From Basidiobolus ranarum (Eukaryota): a DNA stretch of 64,000 nucleotides. Below the pieces are notes generated by a model, which searched no databases, had not been told where the DNA came from, and was given only the letters and a program-made list of their open reading frames with translations. Of the stretch, positions 36,540-50,578 are shown piece after piece (positions within the stretch are counted from its first letter, which is position 1; every line of letters begins with the position of its first letter). The stretch lies in assembly GCA_040143965.1 (NCBI GenBank), contig JASJQH010000001.1:1-64000 (forward strand). The letters are read 5' to 3'. The position numbers and the translations under genes are program-made.

Positions 36540-38384
36540 ATGGAGGAAGGTATGCATATCGTGGAGAACCGAGTGGCTTCTTTTATTGACGCCAAATTCA
36601 CTTGGCCACATCCTGATACTTTTGGTGTCACACCTTTGAATGTAGTTACAAATCCCTATATTAATTCCAACTACAACTACTTCTTACTAACGTATCATTT
36701 CTATGCCCAATAAGTTGGCTGAAGCAGGATTTTACTTCGATCCTCACCTTTCTGGAGATGATAGTTGCGTTTGTTTCCTTTGTCAAAAGTCTTTAGGCGG
36801 TTGGGAAGCAGAGGATAATCCAAACACCGAGCATATAAGTCACGCGCCTTATTGTGCTTGGGCGAAACTTTTATGCTCACGTATATATGTTACTGGTTCT
36901 AAAATACCGTTAGAGAATTTCGATGAAGATTCTTACCTTCCTACTTCGAGTTTTATGGAGGCTGCACGGGCTGCAACCTTTCAAGAACTCTGGCCTCATG
37001 AGAATAAGAAAGGTTGGCTATGTAATGTTAAAAAGGTACGTCTCAAAATTTCTTACTAACACGTATATACATGGATAAAACACCAGATGAATTATATCTT
37101 GGAATTCTCTTATTTTCCTTGTTAATTCTTAATGATTTGTTGTAGATGGCGAAAGCTGGGTTTCATTACAACCCTACACCGGATTCTGATGATACCGCCT
37201 GTTGTATTTACTGCAACACTACTCTTGATGGTTGGGAGCCACGTGATAGTCCGGTGTAAGTTTCAGTATCATATGTGACAATTGTTATGGATATAATCTT
37301 ATTGTCTTTACGATCACAGCAAAGAGCATCGAAAGAGAGCTCCCACTTGCCCTTTTTTCTCAAAAGATCTCAAGAATACTATAAAGAAAATGGATACTGT
37401 TGTCGAAAAGAAAGCAACGAAGGACATCGTGGCGGAGGTAGTCTCTTTAATGAAAACAATTGCCTTTTTGGATTTTAAATTCATGTTTTTTAGACTATTG
37501 AACCGGAAACGGAAGAATCTTCGAGTGATTCCAGAAAAGTGAAACCTCGAGAAAGCTCTAGTAGTGAGAGCTCTCAGGTTAAAGCGAAACCTAAGAATCA
37601 AAGAGGAAACAAGAAGAAAAAAGAAGCACCAGAGATATCAGCGACTACCATTGTAGAACCAGAACAAAGCGAAGAGTTGCCACCTGTCATACCAGAGCGT
37701 AAAGTACGTGGTGGCCGGAAGAGAAAGGTGGATATGAATGTTGAAGAAATACCTATAGTCAGCAAATCTATCCACGAAGAAGGAGATCAAATGGAGACAG
37801 TTATCCCACAAGCTGATATGAGTAAAGAAGAAGTAGATCAGGAATCTGAGCCAAAGCACAAGAAAACTAAAAATCAAGAGCATTCTGACACTGAAATTCC
37901 AAATTCTGACATACAAGAAACCTGCATAAACCCTAACTTCACCGAACTCATTTCACCAAAATCAGTTAACAAGTACCAGACTACCAGTGAAGAAGCATCC
38001 GATTCGATGGTGCTTGAAAAGCAAGTTCAAGAGAAACAAGAACCAGGCGAGCCGTTATATGAGATGACCCTATCTGCTCCTAATACAAACACCTCTTCAA
38101 TCGAGGCTCCTGTTGACAGGAACGATGAACAAGCCAAGTGCCTGATATCCAATAGCCCCCTCCAACATATGGCCTTACCTTCCTCAGAGGCAACGAAGAA
38201 GGATGAAGAGATTCTATTCGATGGAATACTCAGTGAGGAGGAGCTAAATATGACTGTAGAGCAGTTTATGAGATCACTGATCGACAAGCAAGTTAAGAAG
38301 CTACAGTCAGAAAGTGAAGAAAAGATAGCACAGTTCATGCAGGAAGCGGATAAGATTAAGAATATGATTGGCACTATGGACTAG
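36540..38384 (+). CDS. BIR1: Bir1/Cut17 (survivin-like chromosomal passenger protein) with two BIR domains, about 5 exons
   Basis: RVASF...WPH...LAEAGFY...CFLC...GWE..DNP..EH....P.C; second BIR MAKAGFHY...CIYC..LDGWE..DSP..EH.....CPF; C-terminal MTVEQFM...helix. Confidence 0.88.
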
Positions 38385-38770: not shown

Positions 38771-39220
38771 ATGTCAGCTAGTCTATCACTTGCGTCTGCT
38801 CTTCAACCTTCTACCTTTCATAGAAACTCTGTTTTGACCTCTGCATCTTTTACAAGGTCCACGACATTTACAGGGACCAGCTTTGAGACATGTGCAATCA
38901 AAACTGGAATAAGTGAATTAGAGGAGATAGAGACTGATAGCGAGGACGATCTTTCCGATACTACATCCAACTCTCCAACCTCCAAAAATACTGTGGTTAT
39001 TAACCAGGTTGAAAACATCACTACGATTGTTCCATTTTACCGCCATCCCCGGCTACTTGCTGTTCTCAAAGTATTCGCATTTAACTTATTCTTACCTTTC
39101 TTAAGTGGAGTATTTATGGGCTTCGGAGAAATCTGCGCTAATGAGGTGACTTTCAAATGGGGTTGGGTTGGTGCTAGAACATTCTCCACTGGGCTTTACT
39201 CCAGTACCAAAGATAAATAA
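38771..39220 (+). CDS. MIM1: Mitochondrial outer-membrane import protein Mim1/Tom13
   Basis: Acidic/Ser-rich N-terminus followed by FNLFLPFLSGVFMGFGEICANE...WGW, matching the Mim1 NL.LPF.NG.M.GFGE..A.E motif. Confidence 0.85.
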   Translation: MSASLSLASALQPSTFHRNSVLTSASFTRSTTFTGTSFETCAIKTGISELEEIETDSEDDLSDTTSNSPTSKNTVVINQVENITTIVPFYRHPRLLAVLKVFAFNLFLPFLSGVFMGFGEICANEVTFKWGWVGARTFSTGLYSSTKDK

Positions 39221-40613: not shown

Positions 40614-41774
40614 ATGACTTTTGAACAAACTGACGACCTCCGCATCTCTGGTTATGACCCTCTTCTGCCTCCACAAATTATTCAACAAGAACACCCACTT
40701 AGCGAAGTGGCAAGAAGCACTGTCCAGTTGGCTCGCCAGAAGGCGACTGCTGTCCTAAAGGGCGAAGATGACAAAGTTATTGTAGTTGTTGGTCCTTGCT
40801 CTATCCACGATATCAAAGCCGCCAAGGAATACGGTTAGTAAATATTGATACCGCACTTTAATTGAATTGAATTGAATTAACAAGAATCGTATCCTATAAT
40901 AGCACAAAAACTTCATGAAGTTACTGCGAAATATGAAAATGAACTTGTTATTATCATGCGCGCTTATTTCGAAAAACCTCGTACCACCGTCGGCTGGAAG
41001 GGTCTGATTAATGATCCATTCCTTGATGGAAGTTTCCAAATTAACAAAGGGCTTCGTATTGCCCGTCAGTTGTTAATTGATATTACCTCCATGGGAGTTC
41101 CCGTAGGCTCTGAGTTATTAGATACTATCTCTCCACAATTCCTGGCTGATCTGATTTCTTGGGGAGCCATTGGCGCTAGAACCACAGAGTGTCAGCTTCA
41201 TCGTGAGCTTGCCTCTGGTGTTTCTTTCCCAGTAGGATTTAAGAATGGAACTGATGGTAATGCTGGTATAGCTCTGGATGCAATTCGCGCTGCCTCTCAT
41301 CCTCACCATTTCCTTGGTGTTACCAAGCAGGGATTGGCTGCCATTACCAACACTTCAGGTAACGATAGCTGTCATATTATTTTGCGTGGTGGCAATACAG
41401 GACCCAACTATGAAAAGAAACACATTGCTGGTATTCGTGAAGACTTACGCAAAGCCAAGTTAAGAGAAGTAATCATGGTTGATTGTAGCCACGGAAATAG
41501 TTCCAAGCTTCACACTAATCAGCCCAAAGTCTGCTCAAATCTCGCTCAACAAATTGCTGGTGGAGATACCTCCATTGTTGGCCTAATGATTGAAAGTAAC
41601 TTAGTCGCTGGCAGACAAGACATCCCTAAAGAAGGGCCCGAAACCCTTACTTACGGGCAGAGTATTACCGATGCCTGTGTTGATTGGGAGTGTACAGTTG
41701 GTATGTTGGATGAATTAGCTCACGCTGTTCAACAACGTAGAAGTTTACGCACCAACGGAAACGGAAATTATTAA
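40614..41774 (+). CDS. ARO4: Type I-alpha DAHP synthase, probably Tyr-sensitive, 2 exons
   Basis: VGPCSIHD, RAYFEKPRTTVGWKGLINDP, IGARTTE, DCSHGNS, YGQSITDAC. Gly in HHFLGVTK corresponds to the Aro4-type specificity residue. Confidence 0.93.
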
Positions 41775-42846
41775 ACTTTTCCAATCACAATATGATTCAA
41801 GCTTACAAGTTCTCATAGTATTGGAATTAGTATGTGAATAGTAGTCCCGTTGTTAATATATACATTTACCGCCTTTATTCATGGTCTTTTATACCTTTCA
41901 AATATCACATAATAAACACTCATCCACAAAGTATCTTTCTTCCTACAATAGTCATTGCTCTGACCTACCCAGTCCATTGAGTAATAATCTGGCTAATGAT
42001 TCACAGTCTCACCTTTAACTATGTGCCCCTTTGATACCATATGAACACGCAATAATTTGGCTAAATATGGTATGTACCGCACAATCTATAGAACGAACAA
42101 TGGTCGAAGGAGGGGGGTTGTCGGTAAAATCCTTACAAAGAAACTAAGTTGATCGTCCGTAAGCTGGCGAATCAGAAGAGAGACAGACTAAGGGTATTGA
42201 AGTCCAATATTGGGTGAAGTGAAAAATTAGGGCGATATCAATTCTCCATTGGAAGAATCGTTGTGATGAATAAATTGACTTTTTTGTTGATGGCTTGATA
42301 ATGCTCGAAATAGCCACCCTTAAAGACAAAGAAATATTAATAGCAATGCAGTCTATATACCCGACAACGCTTAAAAATTAGCGCCAACTTTATTACGTCC
42401 AACGTTACATCTGTTGGGACTACCATCTCATTAGTTAGAAAAACTGTGCAATCGCCAGCAGTTGATGATCTTTAAGATATCGTCATTGCTACCATTGAAA
42501 ACCCCCATTGTAAAGGATGCAGTGCATTGAATGAAAATAAGTGAAAAGTCGCACAGCTTAATAGGCCCATACTACTACTAGTTTTCTGTCTAATCTATAA
42601 ACAACCAAAACCTGATTCCCACCACTCACATTCCAAGTCGAGGGACTTGATGGTGGTACAATTTTAATTACTGCAACTCCAATATATTTACTTGGGATTT
42701 TTACCAGTCTACTAGCCAAGCTTCACTCACCTATAAAGTTTGAAGTATGGCTCCTGCAACTATGAAAATAAGCGCTTATCTTTTTCATTCTCTTAGTGCA
42801 GGACACCTACCTTTTCTTTCCTTTTTCTATTGTACCATCTCTCAGT

Positions 42847-43665
42847 ATGTGGGGAAAAAATCTTATCACTCTTGCTATTCTTTCACTTGCCTGCGCCGTC
42901 AATGTTCAGGGTCATTCTTACCTAACCGGTCCTGACCCACGTGTTAGACAAGGTCAATGTCGCCTTGATGGAAAAACATTTACTGGTTCAAACCCAAAGA
43001 AATGCTCTGGACCATGTGAAAGCACTGTCTTGACTCCTTTGAACAAACGCGCGGTATACCAAAGAGGTCAGGAACTCAGTGTATCTTGGGCACGTAACAA
43101 TCACCCTGGTGGTTTTGTTCGCCTTGCCTTTGCTAAGACCTCCAAATCTGGTAGTTCCAGTGAATTCGACAAAAATGTTCACAAATACTCTTGTTATGAA
43201 GCCGGGCCTGGATGCCGTGGTCAAAGTGACAAGAACAATAATGACAAATTAGGCGGCAGTACCAAGAACTGTAATACTGCTATATACATTCCAAAGTGGC
43301 TTGAAGATGGTGAGTGGACTCTCCAATGGTCTTGGTATGGCTCCATGCAAGGTCATGGTGACTTTTACTCCTGCTCTGACATTGTCATTAAGGGTGGCCC
43401 TAAGGGAGCTAGTCAAGGTGCTGCATTCGAGGGCGGTGACCCACGTAATCCTAATAAGCAACTTTGTGCTATCGGTTGGGGTGACCGTCTTGGTGTCTGT
43501 AAGTGGAACAGATGCTGGGATACCCAGAACAAGAAATCCCGCGAACCTTTTGTCAAGAAAGGATGGAATACTAATGTTGTCATCAATGCTCCTCCTTACT
43601 CGAAAACTCCTCTGAAGATGTTACCCGGCCGTAATCCTGCTACCAACAAATCAACCCCTTGGTAG
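42847..43665 (+). CDS. Secreted Cys-rich protein with predicted N-terminal histidine brace (LPMO-like), intronless, 272 aa
   Basis: Signal peptide MWGKNLITLAILSLACAVNVQG followed by His1 (codon 42913): HSYLTGPDPR, then W..NNHPGG, TLQWSW and FYSCSDIVI. Confidence 0.75.
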   Translation: MWGKNLITLAILSLACAVNVQGHSYLTGPDPRVRQGQCRLDGKTFTGSNPKKCSGPCESTVLTPLNKRAVYQRGQELSVSWARNNHPGGFVRLAFAKTSKSGSSSEFDKNVHKYSCYEAGPGCRGQSDKNNNDKLGGSTKNCNTAIYIPKWLEDGEWTLQWSWYGSMQGHGDFYSCSDIVIKGGPKGASQGAAFEGGDPRNPNKQLCAIGWGDRLGVCKWNRCWDTQNKKSREPFVKKGWNTNVVINAPPYSKTPLKMLPGRNPATNKSTPW

Positions 43666-45278: not shown

Positions 45279-46569
45279 ATGAGAATATCCGCACAATCTT
45301 TAGTGATTTTGGGTTTAGCCGCTTCTTCTTTAGGCAATAACACCTGTAAGGTTCCTTCACCCAAAACCCACGTATCTTATCGTGCTTCGGGACCCATTGT
45401 ACTTGATGGAAAACTCGATGATGAAGCTTGGAAAAAGGTTCCTTGGACTGAGAACTTTGGTAATATTTTGGGCGCTGCTGGCACACCCCCTCCATCAATG
45501 ATGAATACCCGCGTGAAGGTAAGTCGATATCTTCAAGCTATAATAGTTCTGCGATAGTTACTCATTTTCCTTCCTGTAGATTATGTTTGATGAGGAATAC
45601 ATCTATGTTGGAGCTCAGATTGACGAGGAAATTATCCGCGCCAAGCCCGAGTGTGGTGACAAAGGTACTTAAGATTAATTTTACATTCAATTCGGTCCAG
45701 ATGTTAACTCATTAATATTTGCAGCCTGGGATGATAATGACTTCCAATTCTATCTCGATGCTGATCGCTCCAATAGAAATCTCAAAGTAATCAAGATGAA
45801 TGCTTTGGGTGTCTATGACTCGGTCATTTATGATAAACCACCCAGCAACAACGGTGTTGCCAAGCCTTGGGATATCAAATCTAAGTTTGAATTTAAGGTA
45901 TACACCAATGGCCAAGTTAATGACCCTAGATGGCGTAGGGTTAAGGGTGGTTTCTGGTCAGTCGAGTGGAAGCTTCACAAGAGCCTTTTATCTAATAAGG
46001 CCCTCGGTAAGCGTGACGTAGAAGGCGTTCCAGCATACCAGAATATGAACTTCTTGCGTACTGGTTACAACCCTACCTCCGTTTATCCTCTCCCCGACCA
46101 AAGCAATGCCACCAGCACTGCTTCTCTCTTCTTCGGAATTCCACCGGTATTCAACTTCTCAGGTATGATGAAGCGTCATCAAGTCACTGCTAAGTATCAA
46201 TTCTCTTGGACTCCACAATACTCTAATGACCCTACCAACCCTGATCTCTGGGGTCATATGGAGTTCAAGGATACCACCGATACCTCCATTCCCTTCGTTG
46301 AAGATCCTAACTACTCTACTCGCTACGCTCTTATGCAAGTATACTATGCTCAACAAGCCTATGCAGCCAAAAACCATGGCAAGTACGCCAATGTGTACTC
46401 TAAGTTGAACATTGATTCTGAAGTTATCGGCAAGTGCGTTGCCGTTCCTAAGATCCAAGTATCCCATGACTGCCTCAACTTCGACGCTTTCATTAAGAAG
46501 AACAAGGTTGTTGGTGCCATCAACGACAGCCGTGAGATCAACTTCAAGGCTCGCTTGGCTCAGAATTAG
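45279..46569 (+). CDS. Secreted CBM9-like/DOMON-like sugar-binding domain protein, 3 exons
   Basis: Exons 45279-45518, 45580-45664 and 45725-46569. Signal peptide, then PKTHVSYRASGPIVLDGKLDDEAWKKVPWTENF, TRVK|IMFDEEYIYVGA, DNDF, WSVEWK, SWTPQ....NPDLWGHMEF, ALMQVYYAQ. Confidence 0.75.
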
Positions 46570-47845: not shown

Positions 47846-50578
47846 ATGTTGTCAGAGAACACCTTACCCCATGTGCTAGAAAACATCAAGAGGGATTTGA
47901 AAAATGGAGTTATCGAATCAGCCAAAATGAAACTGATTCCAATTGTGAATGATTACGAATGGGTTTTTGAAGTTCAAGTTTGTTTTCTTTTCCATATTCT
48001 CAAGATAAAGCGAACAAGGATTTTAACTAGACCTTTCTTTTGAAGCTACTTCTACTTGAGATAAATCTTGCTGTGAGAGATTTTCATAAAGCAATGCAAA
48101 TCTTTGCACACATGTAAGTCTACATTTTTTACTGCTTTTATGTAAAAAATATCTTTAATTTTTACCCGTAGGCGAGTGAAGTTCAGAAATGAAGAAATTT
48201 ATAAAGAATTAATATGCCGTATTGTTTACTCTGGTTTACTTGGATCAACAGAAGAACACGCAGGTAAAGTTAATTTTCTTGTACTAAAATAAATTTCGTC
48301 TGATCCTAATATGAGTATTTATTTGGGGTTGTTAGAACTCTTTCGTCAAATACCTAGGGATATACGGAGAGAATTACTAGTTGAAGTAGGAGGTATTTAC
48401 CCTTCTCTATTGCTCAAGCCACTACCACTTGTATTGATATTTTTATGTTGAAAGACATTTATACAAAGCAAAATCGCCTATTTGATGCGTCGCGCATATA
48501 TACATTCATTTGTTACCTATTTCCTCATTTGACACCTCGTTATGGAGTAAGTTAGTTAACCATATGACAACTTAGGGGTTTTTCTGACCGCTTTTATTTA
48601 TCATAGTTACTAGCTGCTGATTTGGTACTCAGGGCAGAAAAAGAGTCTCAACCCTTACTCCCCGTAAATACTTATCGTCGTTTCTTGCGTAAGAGTTTCT
48701 TTATGGAGTTTTTTTATTAGAGGATATTTTAACGAAACCTATTTTCTAGTATACGGAGTCTTGGCCCAAATTTTTGCTGATAAAGTTAATTGTCACAGTC
48801 TGGAGACTCCAGGGCTTAACGCAAATATATCCAAGTTGACTACGATATCACACGAATGCTTGTTAGAATGGATGAGACTTCACCAGGCATATTACATAGC
48901 TCAAATTGAATGGAAGACGATGCATCAATCCTTTATTCATATTTCTAAACAATGCGGATTCCTTCCTGAAAATTGGTACTCTATTCCTTCTCCAGAGCTG
49001 TTCATGCTACCGCAACCATTACTAATTAACACCGATCTATAGCCAAATATCGTCCGTAGAACCAGATGTAGACTCAAATCTCTTTTTCCCCGACGTTCTT
49101 TTGGAATCACTTCGCCTCAATGAATACGCCTTACCAACACAATTTAAATCCCTATTTTTGGCATCATGTTTTGTTCAAATATGCTTCGAATATCAATCAT
49201 TAATATTCAATCCTCTTAAGCTCAATGGTAGCATTCATATACGTACTATAGTGCACTTGGTTCATTACTAACTTCATTTTCAGAGTGCTCTATTCCAGTT
49301 GGTGAAGCCAAGTCAGAAAAGAAAGCTAAAAAGGTCAAATCTAGTAAATCTACACGAAGCAAACAGAAAGCCAAAGCCATGTCGGTGAGTAATTTAGTCG
49401 ATTCATCAACTCCCGCATCTACACCCGAAGGTAAATAAGAAGTTTTGGTTTATTTCTTGGATAGAGTTCTAAGTAGCTGATGGTTATTTAAATAGAAATC
49501 TTGAAAGCAACAGCCCAGGCCACAGGTACCTTACGTAAGGCTCAAGAGCTTCTCACTTTACTAGAAAGTCTCAATGGTGGTGGTACTTTGGATCAGGTGA
49601 TCAATGACTGGGCTCTACCTTTTCACATTGTAAACGCAATTCTTCTTTGCAAAGCAGACATCCAATTGATGGAGGTAAGTGTGACTTCGTATGGTTGAAG
49701 TATGTTCGTTCATTAATTAACAGGATCAATTTTGTAGATGAAATATTCAGACTCGCAAGCCAGCTACATAATACTATCAGATAGATGCCAAACCAGATGG
49801 CGGGAGAAGAAGGAGATCCTAGATGGAACCTCGATACTATTCCATCCTCTCTATCAATTCCGTCTTCTTTATTCGCTCAGTCTAAGTGGTGAACATATGG
49901 GGGATTTCAAGGTTCGCCATATTACAGATTATTTCAATCATTCAGTTCCTAATTTGTTACCAGATTGCTCGAAAGCACATCTTCCCAATTCTATATTCAG
50001 GGTTGCCATGTCAATTCAGTGACTTGTCCTTTGAAATCGAAAAGTTCTCTAAATTTCGACTCAAGCCTGTTACTTCTTCTGAACTATTGAGCCGCAGTAT
50101 ACAGCGTCTAGTAACTTTATATACAGCCGAGATTGAGCTAAATGGGTTTAATAACGACTTGATAGGGGATCTTTTGGTGCTACTTCAGTTCGATGAATCC
50201 CAATTAACAGATAGACTTCAATGGATTTCTCAGTTACTCATTCAGAATGGCTCTTTTGTTTACCGGGAATTTTTCCACTTCATCTTTTCTGAGGCAATAA
50301 TACAACAGGTGTTTCAAGTCAAGAATCTAAATGCGTTATTATATTCACTGTTGCCAGTAAAATCAAACACCGACTCCTCCCAACAAAGTGTATTTGAAGT
50401 ATCACAGATCGAACAGAACCGTACACTTGAAGCACATTTACAGCTTGCACTCGAGAAGACCCCCAAAAAGATGATGTTACTTAGAGAATTTTCCAGAAGA
50501 TCATACCTCCGAGACCAAGGAATGCCTGCCACTATGTGGCAACGCAATATATTTACAGTTGGTGAATTTTGGCGCTGA
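47846..50578 (+). CDS. INTS10: Integrator complex subunit 10-like protein, about 12 exons
   Basis: Spliced blocks SAKMKLI......VFEVQ, ELFRQIPRDIRRELL, LFPHLTPRYG|LLAADLVLRAEKESQPLLPVNTYRRFL and DLIGDLLVLLQFD...IQNGSFVYREFFHFI parallel the human INTS10 blocks as I recall them. Confidence 0.72.

Follow-up and report, generated by a model that had tools for sequence, protein, structure and literature searches.

Introduction

Each of the lytic polysaccharide monooxygenase (LPMO) families AA9 to AA11 and AA13 to AA17 has opened up new substrates or new biology, ranging from biomass conversion to insect moulting and the virulence of oomycetes and fungi. To our knowledge, all of the well-studied LPMO families, with the exception of some AA10 enzymes, possess a catalytic Glu or Gln at position -2, the second residue upstream of the axial aromatic residue of the copper site. 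The family of most relevance to the present work is AA11, whose enzymes are reported to be active on chitin or chito-oligomers (PMC12186267); the same source presents an axial Tyr coupled with a Glu two residues before it as unique to AA11. The present analysis concerns a stretch of 64,000 nucleotides of Basidiobolus ranarum DNA (contig JASJQH010000001.1, positions 1 to 64,000; hereafter the window) and, within it, a gene whose product, P0001 (hereafter the window protein), had been put forward in a preliminary description as a secreted candidate LPMO fitting no familiar family. On balance, we favor the view that this gene specifies a secreted mono-copper LPMO, which would belong to a large, uncharacterized eukaryotic branch with AA11 as its nearest characterized relatives and which is probably active on chitin. 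The gene itself is intact and, judged from its sequence, codes for a secreted LPMO-type protein, representing an uncharacterized AA11-like branch that lacks a Pfam model and is predicted to possess an atypical second sphere. Copper-site residues are given in mature numbering, while the coordinates of all features are collected in Table 1.

Family searches and structural comparison

An exhaustive phmmer search of 1.84 billion cluster representatives (50% identity) returned 395 representatives at an E value of ≤1e-3, with 197 at ≤1e-10 and 25 at ≤1e-30. A word-indexed search with the single protein recovered the B. ranarum orthologue alone, the wider family being reached only through the exhaustive search. 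Two family alignments were used: A1, which is composed of the mature window protein and 136 of the best 150 of the 395 phmmer matches, and A3, a second alignment of 98 rows. The 14 rows left out of A1 were very long or carried long N-terminal extensions (P0023, P0041, P0044, P0063, P0074, P0081, P0096, P0100, P0112, P0122, and P0136-P0139). The consensus of A1 reads HS.L..P..R ... C.GPC ... RG....W.RNNH.GGF.R ... (Y/W)TLQW.W.GG ... GDY.SC.D..I.GG ... P.F.GGD ... C ... C..EPC. Pfam returned no family match for the window protein, the sole hit, to Orthopox_B11R (E 0.13), being a chance one; at E ≤10, the protein matched none of AA9 (PF03443), LPMO_10 (PF03067, covering AA10 and AA15), and BIM1-like (PF20238).

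Comparison with the Protein Data Bank (PDB) was more informative. The window sequence alone gave three matches, all of which are AA11 structures (4mah, E 0.0027; 9exj, E 0.0049; 7p3u, E 0.01). The A1 profile gave 29 matches at E ≤1, 28 of which bear LPMO, GH61, or AA names, the exception being 6ncl P14 (E 0.18), while all 28 matches of the A3 profile at E ≤10 bear LPMO-type names. The A3 profile aligned with 4mah from His1 (E 7.5e-9; profile positions 22-190 on chain positions 1-159) and with 9exj (E 1.1e-8; profile 26-202 on chain 5-172), and across the family profiles the best AA11 matches (E 2e-9 to 7.5e-9) covered the whole domain from His1. The A3 match to the AA16 structure 7ze9 (E 2.6e-7) was confined to the last two strands, AA9 chains followed at 2.5e-5 and weaker, and no AA10 or AA15 chain in the PDB was matched by the family profiles at E ≤10.

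The whole mature protein was modeled by AlphaFold2 with a mean predicted local distance difference test score (pLDDT) of 83.8 and a predicted template modeling score (pTM) of 0.82, low values being confined to residues 21-30 and 101-120 and to those beyond approximately 205. A model of mature residues 1-205 reached a pLDDT of 88.6 and a pTM of 0.88. When the latter was compared with the PDB by Foldseek, a check which the preliminary description had suggested, AA11 was found first, the four best matches (template modeling [TM] scores TMq 0.50-0.55 and TMt 0.50-0.58) being 9exj (E 1.4e-6, TMt 0.58), 9hdg (E 1.9e-6, TMt 0.53), 7p3u (E 9.5e-6, TMt 0.50), and 4mai (E 1.1e-5, TMt 0.55). Behind these came AA9 entries (E 1.1e-5 and weaker, TMt 0.29-0.39), the AA10 protein CBP21 (E 1.5e-4, TMt 0.53), AA16 (E 1.6e-4, TMt 0.49), and AA15 (E 1.9e-4, TMt 0.40). 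All of the listed matches down to rank 48 were LPMOs (probability 1.00), the first non-LPMO, the effector NIS1, being placed at rank 49, and the full-length model produced the same ordering at the top. The modeled fold is that of the LPMO beta-sandwich, with AA11 as the nearest known family and a remote relationship to it. The assignment to an LPMO fold, proposed beforehand from sequence motifs, is supported by both the profile matches and the models.

Comparison with described LPMO families

Among solved structures, those of AA11 (AoAA11, 4MAH/4MAI; AfAA11A, 7P3U; AfAA11B, 9EXJ/9HDG) represent the best match in sequence as well as in fold, and the match extends across the whole domain from His1. 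AA11 and the window family have in common a second His followed by GG, a (Y/W)TL.W.W strand, a last strand with the pattern aromatic-x-x-C, and a conserved C-terminal segment containing Cys, and both AA11 and the window protein (the latter by prediction) are secreted and of fungal origin. In contrast, the family profile scores AA11 at approximately 39 bits, against 170 to 340 bits within the window family. The motif RNNH.GGF.R of the window family stands where AA11 has ..VHGGGS, and the window family possesses an extra Cys-rich N-terminal loop (C..C.GPC) relative to AA11. Furthermore, the Tyr-Glu pair that is the hallmark of AA11 is absent from the window protein, which has Phe151 with Gly149, and most of the family combines Tyr with Gly, Ser, or Ala.

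According to surveys performed with dbCAN, AA11 has undergone expansion throughout Kickxellomycotina (PMC9866270), and the secretomes of Zoopagomycota are enriched in it (PMC9391592). These surveyed expansions may be the window family itself, in which case automated CAZy-style annotation already files the group under AA11.

AA16, represented by MtAA16A (7ZE9, as identified in PMC10088020), and AA9 (the former GH61) share the LPMO fold and the His brace with the window family, yet their profile matches span approximately 45 to 65 residues only, and the Q-T/N-Y motif of AA16 and the Q-x-Y motif of AA9 contrast with G-D-F/Y in the window family. In AA16, which is found in fungi and oomycetes, the conserved Q-T/N-Y motif includes the axial Tyr (PMC6420742). 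With G-D-F in the window protein, G-D-Y in the family, and a 7ze9 match restricted to the last two strands, membership of AA16 is not indicated; among the oomycete relatives, 7ze9 was not matched by P0187 at E ≤1 or by P0146 at E ≤10. Weak Pfam matches to AA9 were obtained for 10 of 137 relatives (best E 2.8e-7; P0146 at 29.8 bits versus a cut-off of 27.8) and to DUF7492 for 9 of 137, both sets lying near the gathering score and covering the last strands only, and LPMO_10 was matched by a single relative among 137 (2.1e-4).

In a language-model look-alike search, the nearest named clusters (0.91) were those of NCBIfam NF043005, the SCE4755 family of polysaccharide monooxygenase-like proteins, which is bacterial and uncharacterized. 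The corresponding hidden Markov model aligns weakly with residues 52-179 of the window protein (profile positions 25-145 of 146). The window protein falls outside NF043005, for which the cut-off is 75 bits: the full sequence scores 19.6 bits and the catalytic domain by itself 20.6, and only 5 of 98 window-family members match at E ≤1e-3. A search of the open-access full-text literature found no paper on SCE4755 or DUF7492.

The family AA17 is expanded in oomycetes, with 31 genes in P. infestans (PMC8993506) and approximately 46 per Phytophthora (PMC8393829). As an identity for the oomycete relatives it was provisionally set aside, since P0187 and P0146 match no solved structure except AA11, and that weakly, and since one P. 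infestans cluster only is present among the relatives of P0187. AA17 was not encountered among the PDB chains matched by the family profiles, by P0187, or by P0146, nor among the listed Foldseek matches, the presence of an AA17 structure in the searched copies being unconfirmed. The label AA18 is used in two papers of 2026, one of which attributes it to Santos et al. 2025, presumably the account of a bacterial cellulose enzyme of metagenomic origin.

It is, therefore, not entirely accurate that the window protein resembles no familiar family: the statement, made in the preliminary description, stands as regards the Pfam models named above, but it overlooks the distant, whole-domain likeness to AA11. 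A divergent AA11-like subfamily is the most likely classification. More tentatively, the group may constitute a distinct LPMO family separate from AA11, comprising Zoopagomycota, oomycetes, and many unnamed eukaryotic sequences, with an RNNH.GGF.R active site of its own, a small residue at position -2, and a second sphere moved to another strand, whose members would work with GH18 chitinases and be reduced by cupredoxins; this we consider possible but doubtful.

The predicted copper site and its second sphere

The second His of the window protein is situated at mature position 64, as first described, in the context SWARNNHPGGFVR (SWARNNHPGG), and is retained in 132 of 136 rows of A1 and 95 of 98 rows of A3. 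The surrounding RNNH.GGF.R columns are likewise conserved in A1 (R 118/135, N 105/136, N 115/136, second G 136/136, F 128/136, and R 124/136). At the end of the core, TLQWSW...GDFYSCSDIVI, the residue previously proposed as the axial Phe occupies a column that holds Tyr or Phe in 120 of 131 rows (Y 103, F 17). The column immediately before it contains Asp in 99 of 130 rows (Asp150 in the window protein), and that at position -2 contains G in 75, S in 15, and A in 14 of 129 rows (Gly149). The Gly to which the preliminary description had drawn attention is indeed present, but a small residue at this position is a trait of the family and no peculiarity of the window protein. The His1, His64, and axial aromatic columns are among the best conserved in the family alignments.

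When the family profile is aligned with AoAA11 (4MAH), His1, His64, and Phe151 correspond to His1, His60, and Tyr140 (positions counted from the alignment), which we take to be the copper ligands of AoAA11, and Gly149 is placed opposite the Glu two residues before Tyr140. For AfAA11B, the ligands stated in PMC12186267 are His1, His61, and Tyr141, in line with the AoAA11 positions. By this correspondence to the AA11 ligands, His1, His64, and Phe151 of the window protein would be expected to converge on a single copper site.

In AA9, AA11, AA16, and many AA10 enzymes, H2O2 is positioned by a Glu or Gln at position -2, whose loss harms catalysis (PMC6420742; PMC12186267); this second-sphere residue is, moreover, described as crucial for productive H2O2 use (PMC12186267). 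An LPMO-like protein without catalysis is, with Gly at this position, a possible outcome. Such a copper protein would not cleave polysaccharides but would serve in copper acquisition or buffering, in the manner of Bim1/X325, or as an H2O2-producing oxidoreductase resembling AA16, a reading we regard as decidedly unlikely. It is consistent with Gly in place of Glu/Gln, with an axial Phe rather than Tyr, with a BIM1-like domain match in 1 of 137 relatives (2e-5; P0157, 0.0019), and with the appearance of BIM1-like clusters at 0.85-0.87 in the language-model search, whereas the window protein itself lacks a BIM1-like match. Anchoring by glycosylphosphatidylinositol (GPI) defines X325/Bim1-like proteins, and the C-terminus of the window protein is polar, with no hydrophobic segment of the kind expected of a GPI-anchor signal apparent on reading the sequence. 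The fusion of relatives to chitin-binding modules and to a GH18 chitinase is also better suited to a polysaccharide-directed enzyme. A precedent for the non-cleaving reading is offered by MtAA16A, for which PMC10088020 reports a full His brace and no saccharide cleavage. On the other side, AA10 enzymes function with an axial Phe, and in SmAA10A the Glu is contributed by a different part of the chain (PMC12186267).

Because SmAA10A obtains its Glu from elsewhere, a relocated second-sphere residue is plausible for the AA11-like LPMO favored here. Conserved candidates in A3 are Gln138 (75/97) and Asp150 (68/96), in addition to Asn62, Asn63, and Arg61, and it may be speculated that Gln138, on the neighboring strand, or Asp150 could take over the second-sphere role. 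In the oomycete members, unlike the window protein, a Glu occupies the third position ahead of the axial aromatic residue.

The leader and the mature N-terminus

The leader of the window protein is composed of MWGKN, a hydrophobic core (LITLAILSLA), and CAVNVQG, following the n/h/c pattern of a eukaryotic signal peptide, and its predicted length of 22 residues would leave His as residue 1, as anticipated in the preliminary description, which had made its reading depend on conservation of this His among homologues. Among the 115 homologues of A1 represented at the corresponding column, 105 have this His, and so do 87 of 90 rows of A3. In 104 of the 105 His-bearing rows of A1 it is preceded by A, G, S, C, or T, and 90 of the 105 possess a Met start and a hydrophobic leader of 14-40 amino acids. 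Cleavage by signal peptidase directly before His23 would, from these alignments, appear to be a conserved property of the family.

Ten rows of A1 lack the first His. In two of them, P0047 and P0113, it is replaced by Gly (GSYLC versus HSYLC), while the second-His motif is kept or nearly kept; these proteins may be non-copper derivatives or mispredicted genes.

An alternative AXA-type cleavage site, ACA followed by V, lies five residues upstream of His23 in the window protein. Together with the Gly of P0047 and P0113 and with the position of the non-LPMO effector NIS1 directly behind the LPMOs in the Foldseek ranking, this site would suit a secreted beta-sandwich no longer able to bind metal, for instance a lectin-like protein or a structural protein of the wall, whose His residues owe their conservation to something other than metal or whose leader is processed at a different site. 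Against it stand the small residue followed by the first His in 104 of 115 rows and the second His in 132 of 136; as the window protein retains both His residues, loss of metal binding is considered highly improbable.

The C-terminal region

The 91 residues that follow the last core strand include three Cys and five Trp and had been interpreted as a single tail module of approximately 90 amino acids. This interpretation is not upheld, as about half of the region is conserved catalytic core (160-201) and the other half a likely disordered extension. The stretch from about mature residue 160 to 201 (GGPKG...AFEGGD...C185...C196...C201) is occupied in 86-92% of rows and modeled with a pLDDT of 87-95, and its Cys residues are strongly retained (C185 in 125/126 rows, C196 in 113/122, and C201 in 113/116). 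Because the 9exj alignment passes through this segment, it is assigned to the catalytic domain, as in AA11; the mature protein contains 10 Cys in total. The last ~45-50 residues show an occupancy of 0.49-0.63 and a top-residue frequency of ≤0.22 outside the B. ranarum orthologue. Given its low model confidence (Table 1), the extension is probably flexible and disordered, resembling the disordered C-terminal extensions that have been described throughout the LPMO families (PMC8615602).

Relatives, domain fusions, and the proposed substrate

The named relatives belong to Zoopagomycota (B. ranarum K7432_008555, Coemansia, and Tieghemiomyces) and to oomycetes (Pythium, Globisporangium, Phytophthora, and Nothophytophthora), scoring from E 1e-146 to 1e-43 and having the His1, RNNH, and aromatic-x-S-C signatures in common. 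None of these fungal or oomycete relatives is characterized, and the names that databases have assigned automatically to some of them are "Chitin-binding type-4 domain-containing," "AA9 catalytic domain-containing," and "putative lytic polysaccharide monooxygenase 9." The listed open-access full texts that pair Basidiobolus with lytic polysaccharide monooxygenase contain no mention of the window protein. The oomycete members lack the C-terminal part of the window protein (query coverage, 50-70%). In a FastTree phylogeny of the 125 rows with ≥75% core coverage, rooted at the midpoint and not used for substrate inference, the window protein and its B. ranarum orthologue share a long branch which appears to be basal to the clade containing the CBM18 carriers and the oomycete group.

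Domain fusions among the relatives point mainly to chitin. A Pfam scan of A1 identified Chitin_bind_1 (CBM18) in 7 of 137 rows, CBM_2 in one, and a ricin lectin in one. Among 50 proteins scanned singly, Chitin_bind_1 was present in P0006, P0011, and P0032 (P0015 narrowly missed the Pfam cut-off), CBM_2 in P0038, and a proprotein-convertase P-domain in P0010. P0063 (985 amino acids) consists of an LPMO-like domain fused to GH18, while P0041 (1515 amino acids) has a plastocyanin/azurin copper domain (384-479) placed between an LPMO-like domain and a GH18 chitinase (770-1138), followed by a hydrophobic stretch and a tail. From such arrangements it would seem that the electron donor may be built in and that a chitinase acts as partner. 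The chitin activity mentioned as a possibility in the preliminary description gains support from the CBM18, CBM2, and GH18 fusions, which for part of the family favor a chitin-related role.

The following mechanism is proposed for the window protein. Signal peptidase would cut between Gly22 and His23, after which the amine and side chain of His1, together with His64, would hold one copper in a histidine brace, with Phe151 closing the axial position and up to five disulfides, formed from the 10 Cys, stiffening the loops. An external reductant would then generate Cu(I), which with H2O2 or O2 would abstract a hydrogen at C1 or C4 of a glycosidic bond on a polysaccharide surface and break the chain, while the second-sphere role would have to be filled from elsewhere in the sequence. 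The most likely substrate would be chitin or chitin oligomers, derived from arthropod material, from fungal material, or from the organism's own wall. Basidiobolus-type fungi are associated with arthropod remains and animal guts and have chitin walls. Chitin is favored because AA11 acts on chitin or chito-oligomers, because CBM18 and GH18 are the commonest informative fusions in the closer relatives, and because these fungi live with arthropod material and possess chitin walls.

A true LPMO directed at a substrate other than chitin, be it cellulose, beta-1,3- or beta-1,6-glucan, another wall polymer, or an animal glycan, appears unlikely, although several observations would accommodate it. CBM_2 and a ricin-type lectin each occur in one relative, and what the fusions of other family members indicate need not hold for a protein on a long branch of its own. 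In addition, Pythium oligandrum carries at least eight paralogues on one contig of 686,512 bases, whose neighboring tags, Poli38472_012621 to 012630, constitute a tandem array. Tandem AA9-labeled arrays of P. oligandrum, induced on oomycete prey, are discussed in connection with cellulose degradation in PMC7720654; both arrays being tandem and auto-named AA9, the genes of that report are presumably the relatives found here. Nonetheless, CBM18 and GH18 fusions outnumber the others among the closer relatives, and the nearest characterized family, AA11, is directed at chitin and chito-oligomers (PMC12186267).

Weighing against the proposal of a chitin-active, AA11-like LPMO, besides the Gly at position -2, the precedent of MtAA16A, and the cellulose-linked Pythium arrays, are four further points. 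Similarity to any characterized LPMO is weak (16-20% identity, TM ≤0.58, and a root mean square deviation of 6.5-9 Å). The long, separate branch of the window protein lies outside the CBM18-bearing clade in the midpoint-rooted FastTree phylogeny. Pfam identifies no carbohydrate-binding module in the window protein itself, and no chitinase gene adjoins its gene, the neighbors being BIR, TOM13, and DAHP synthase genes.

The gene and its neighborhood

The closest relative of the window protein is a hypothetical B. ranarum protein of 271 amino acids, which aligns with it end to end (76% identity, 100% coverage) and whose start coincides with the ATG start of the window open reading frame (ORF); an alternative in-frame GTG upstream of the ATG would yield 289 amino acids. 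No intron is needed, since the B. ranarum alignment is end to end and the family profile is matched in a single stretch, which bears out the earlier description of the gene as intronless. A comparison of the family profile with the six-frame translation of the window matched this ORF only (E 9.4e-81), and no second gene copy was found in the window by this means.

The BIR and TOM13 neighbors are ordinary eukaryotic housekeeping genes and give no sign of a carbohydrate-active gene cluster. The ORF matching DAHP synthetase I is probably one exon of an aromatic amino acid biosynthesis gene whose 5' part lies upstream. Two ORFs that overlap the LPMO-like gene in other frames look like by-products of mechanical ORF listing.

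Table 1. Features of the LPMO-like gene and of its surroundings in the 64,000-nucleotide window (aa, amino acids)
Feature	Position	Strand	Remarks
Complete single-exon coding sequence, LPMO-like protein (P0001)	42847..43665	+	272 codons; ATG start, TAG stop at 43663-43665 (ORF listing, translation)
Predicted signal peptide, MWGKNLITLAILSLACAVNVQG	42847..42912	+	22 aa; read from sequence; V at -3, G at -1
His23 (mature His1), codon CAT	42913-42915	+	Proposed copper ligand via N-terminal amine and side chain
Predicted catalytic LPMO-fold domain, mature 1-205	42913..43527	+	10 Cys, including C185, C196, and C201; model, Foldseek, profile alignments
RNNHPGGFVR motif with His86 (mature His64)	43093..43122	+	Proposed second copper ligand; His codon 43102-43104
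Last two core strands, TLQWSW...GDFYSCSDIVI, EWTLQWSWYGSMQGHGDFYSCSDIVI	43321..43389	+	Proposed axial Phe173 (mature Phe151), codon 43363-43365
C-terminal extension, Lys/Asn/Pro-rich	43528..43662	+	45 aa; polar end ...NPATNKSTPW; pLDDT 50-74 (full-length model)
BIR (inhibitor of apoptosis) domain ORF	36703-37059	+	Pfam E 7.8e-19
ORF without Pfam match at E ≤1e-3	37539-38384	+	281 aa
TOM13 mitochondrial outer-membrane domain ORF	38771-39220	+	E 4.9e-18
ORF matching DAHP synthetase I, the match starting at profile position 53	40956-41774	+	272 aa; E 2.2e-73
Overlapping ATG ORF, other frame	42747-42935	+	62 aa; mechanical listing
Overlapping ATG ORF, other frame	43307-43615	+	102 aa; without start-independent support
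ORF without Pfam match at E ≤1e-3	45796-46569	+	257 aa
ORF without Pfam match at E ≤1e-3	49886-50578	+	230 aa

Significance

The window protein belongs to a large uncharacterized branch, which amounts to 395 representatives at 50% identity, has no Pfam model, and is predicted to possess a copper site without the usual Glu or Gln at position -2. Characterization of one member would reveal which substrates these enzymes cut and whether a fold of the AA11 type remains functional when its second sphere is supplied from elsewhere. The fusions to GH18 and cupredoxin domains point to physiological partners and to an electron source, both of which are open questions for LPMOs. In Basidiobolus-type fungi, the enzyme may have a part in the use of chitin or in wall remodeling.

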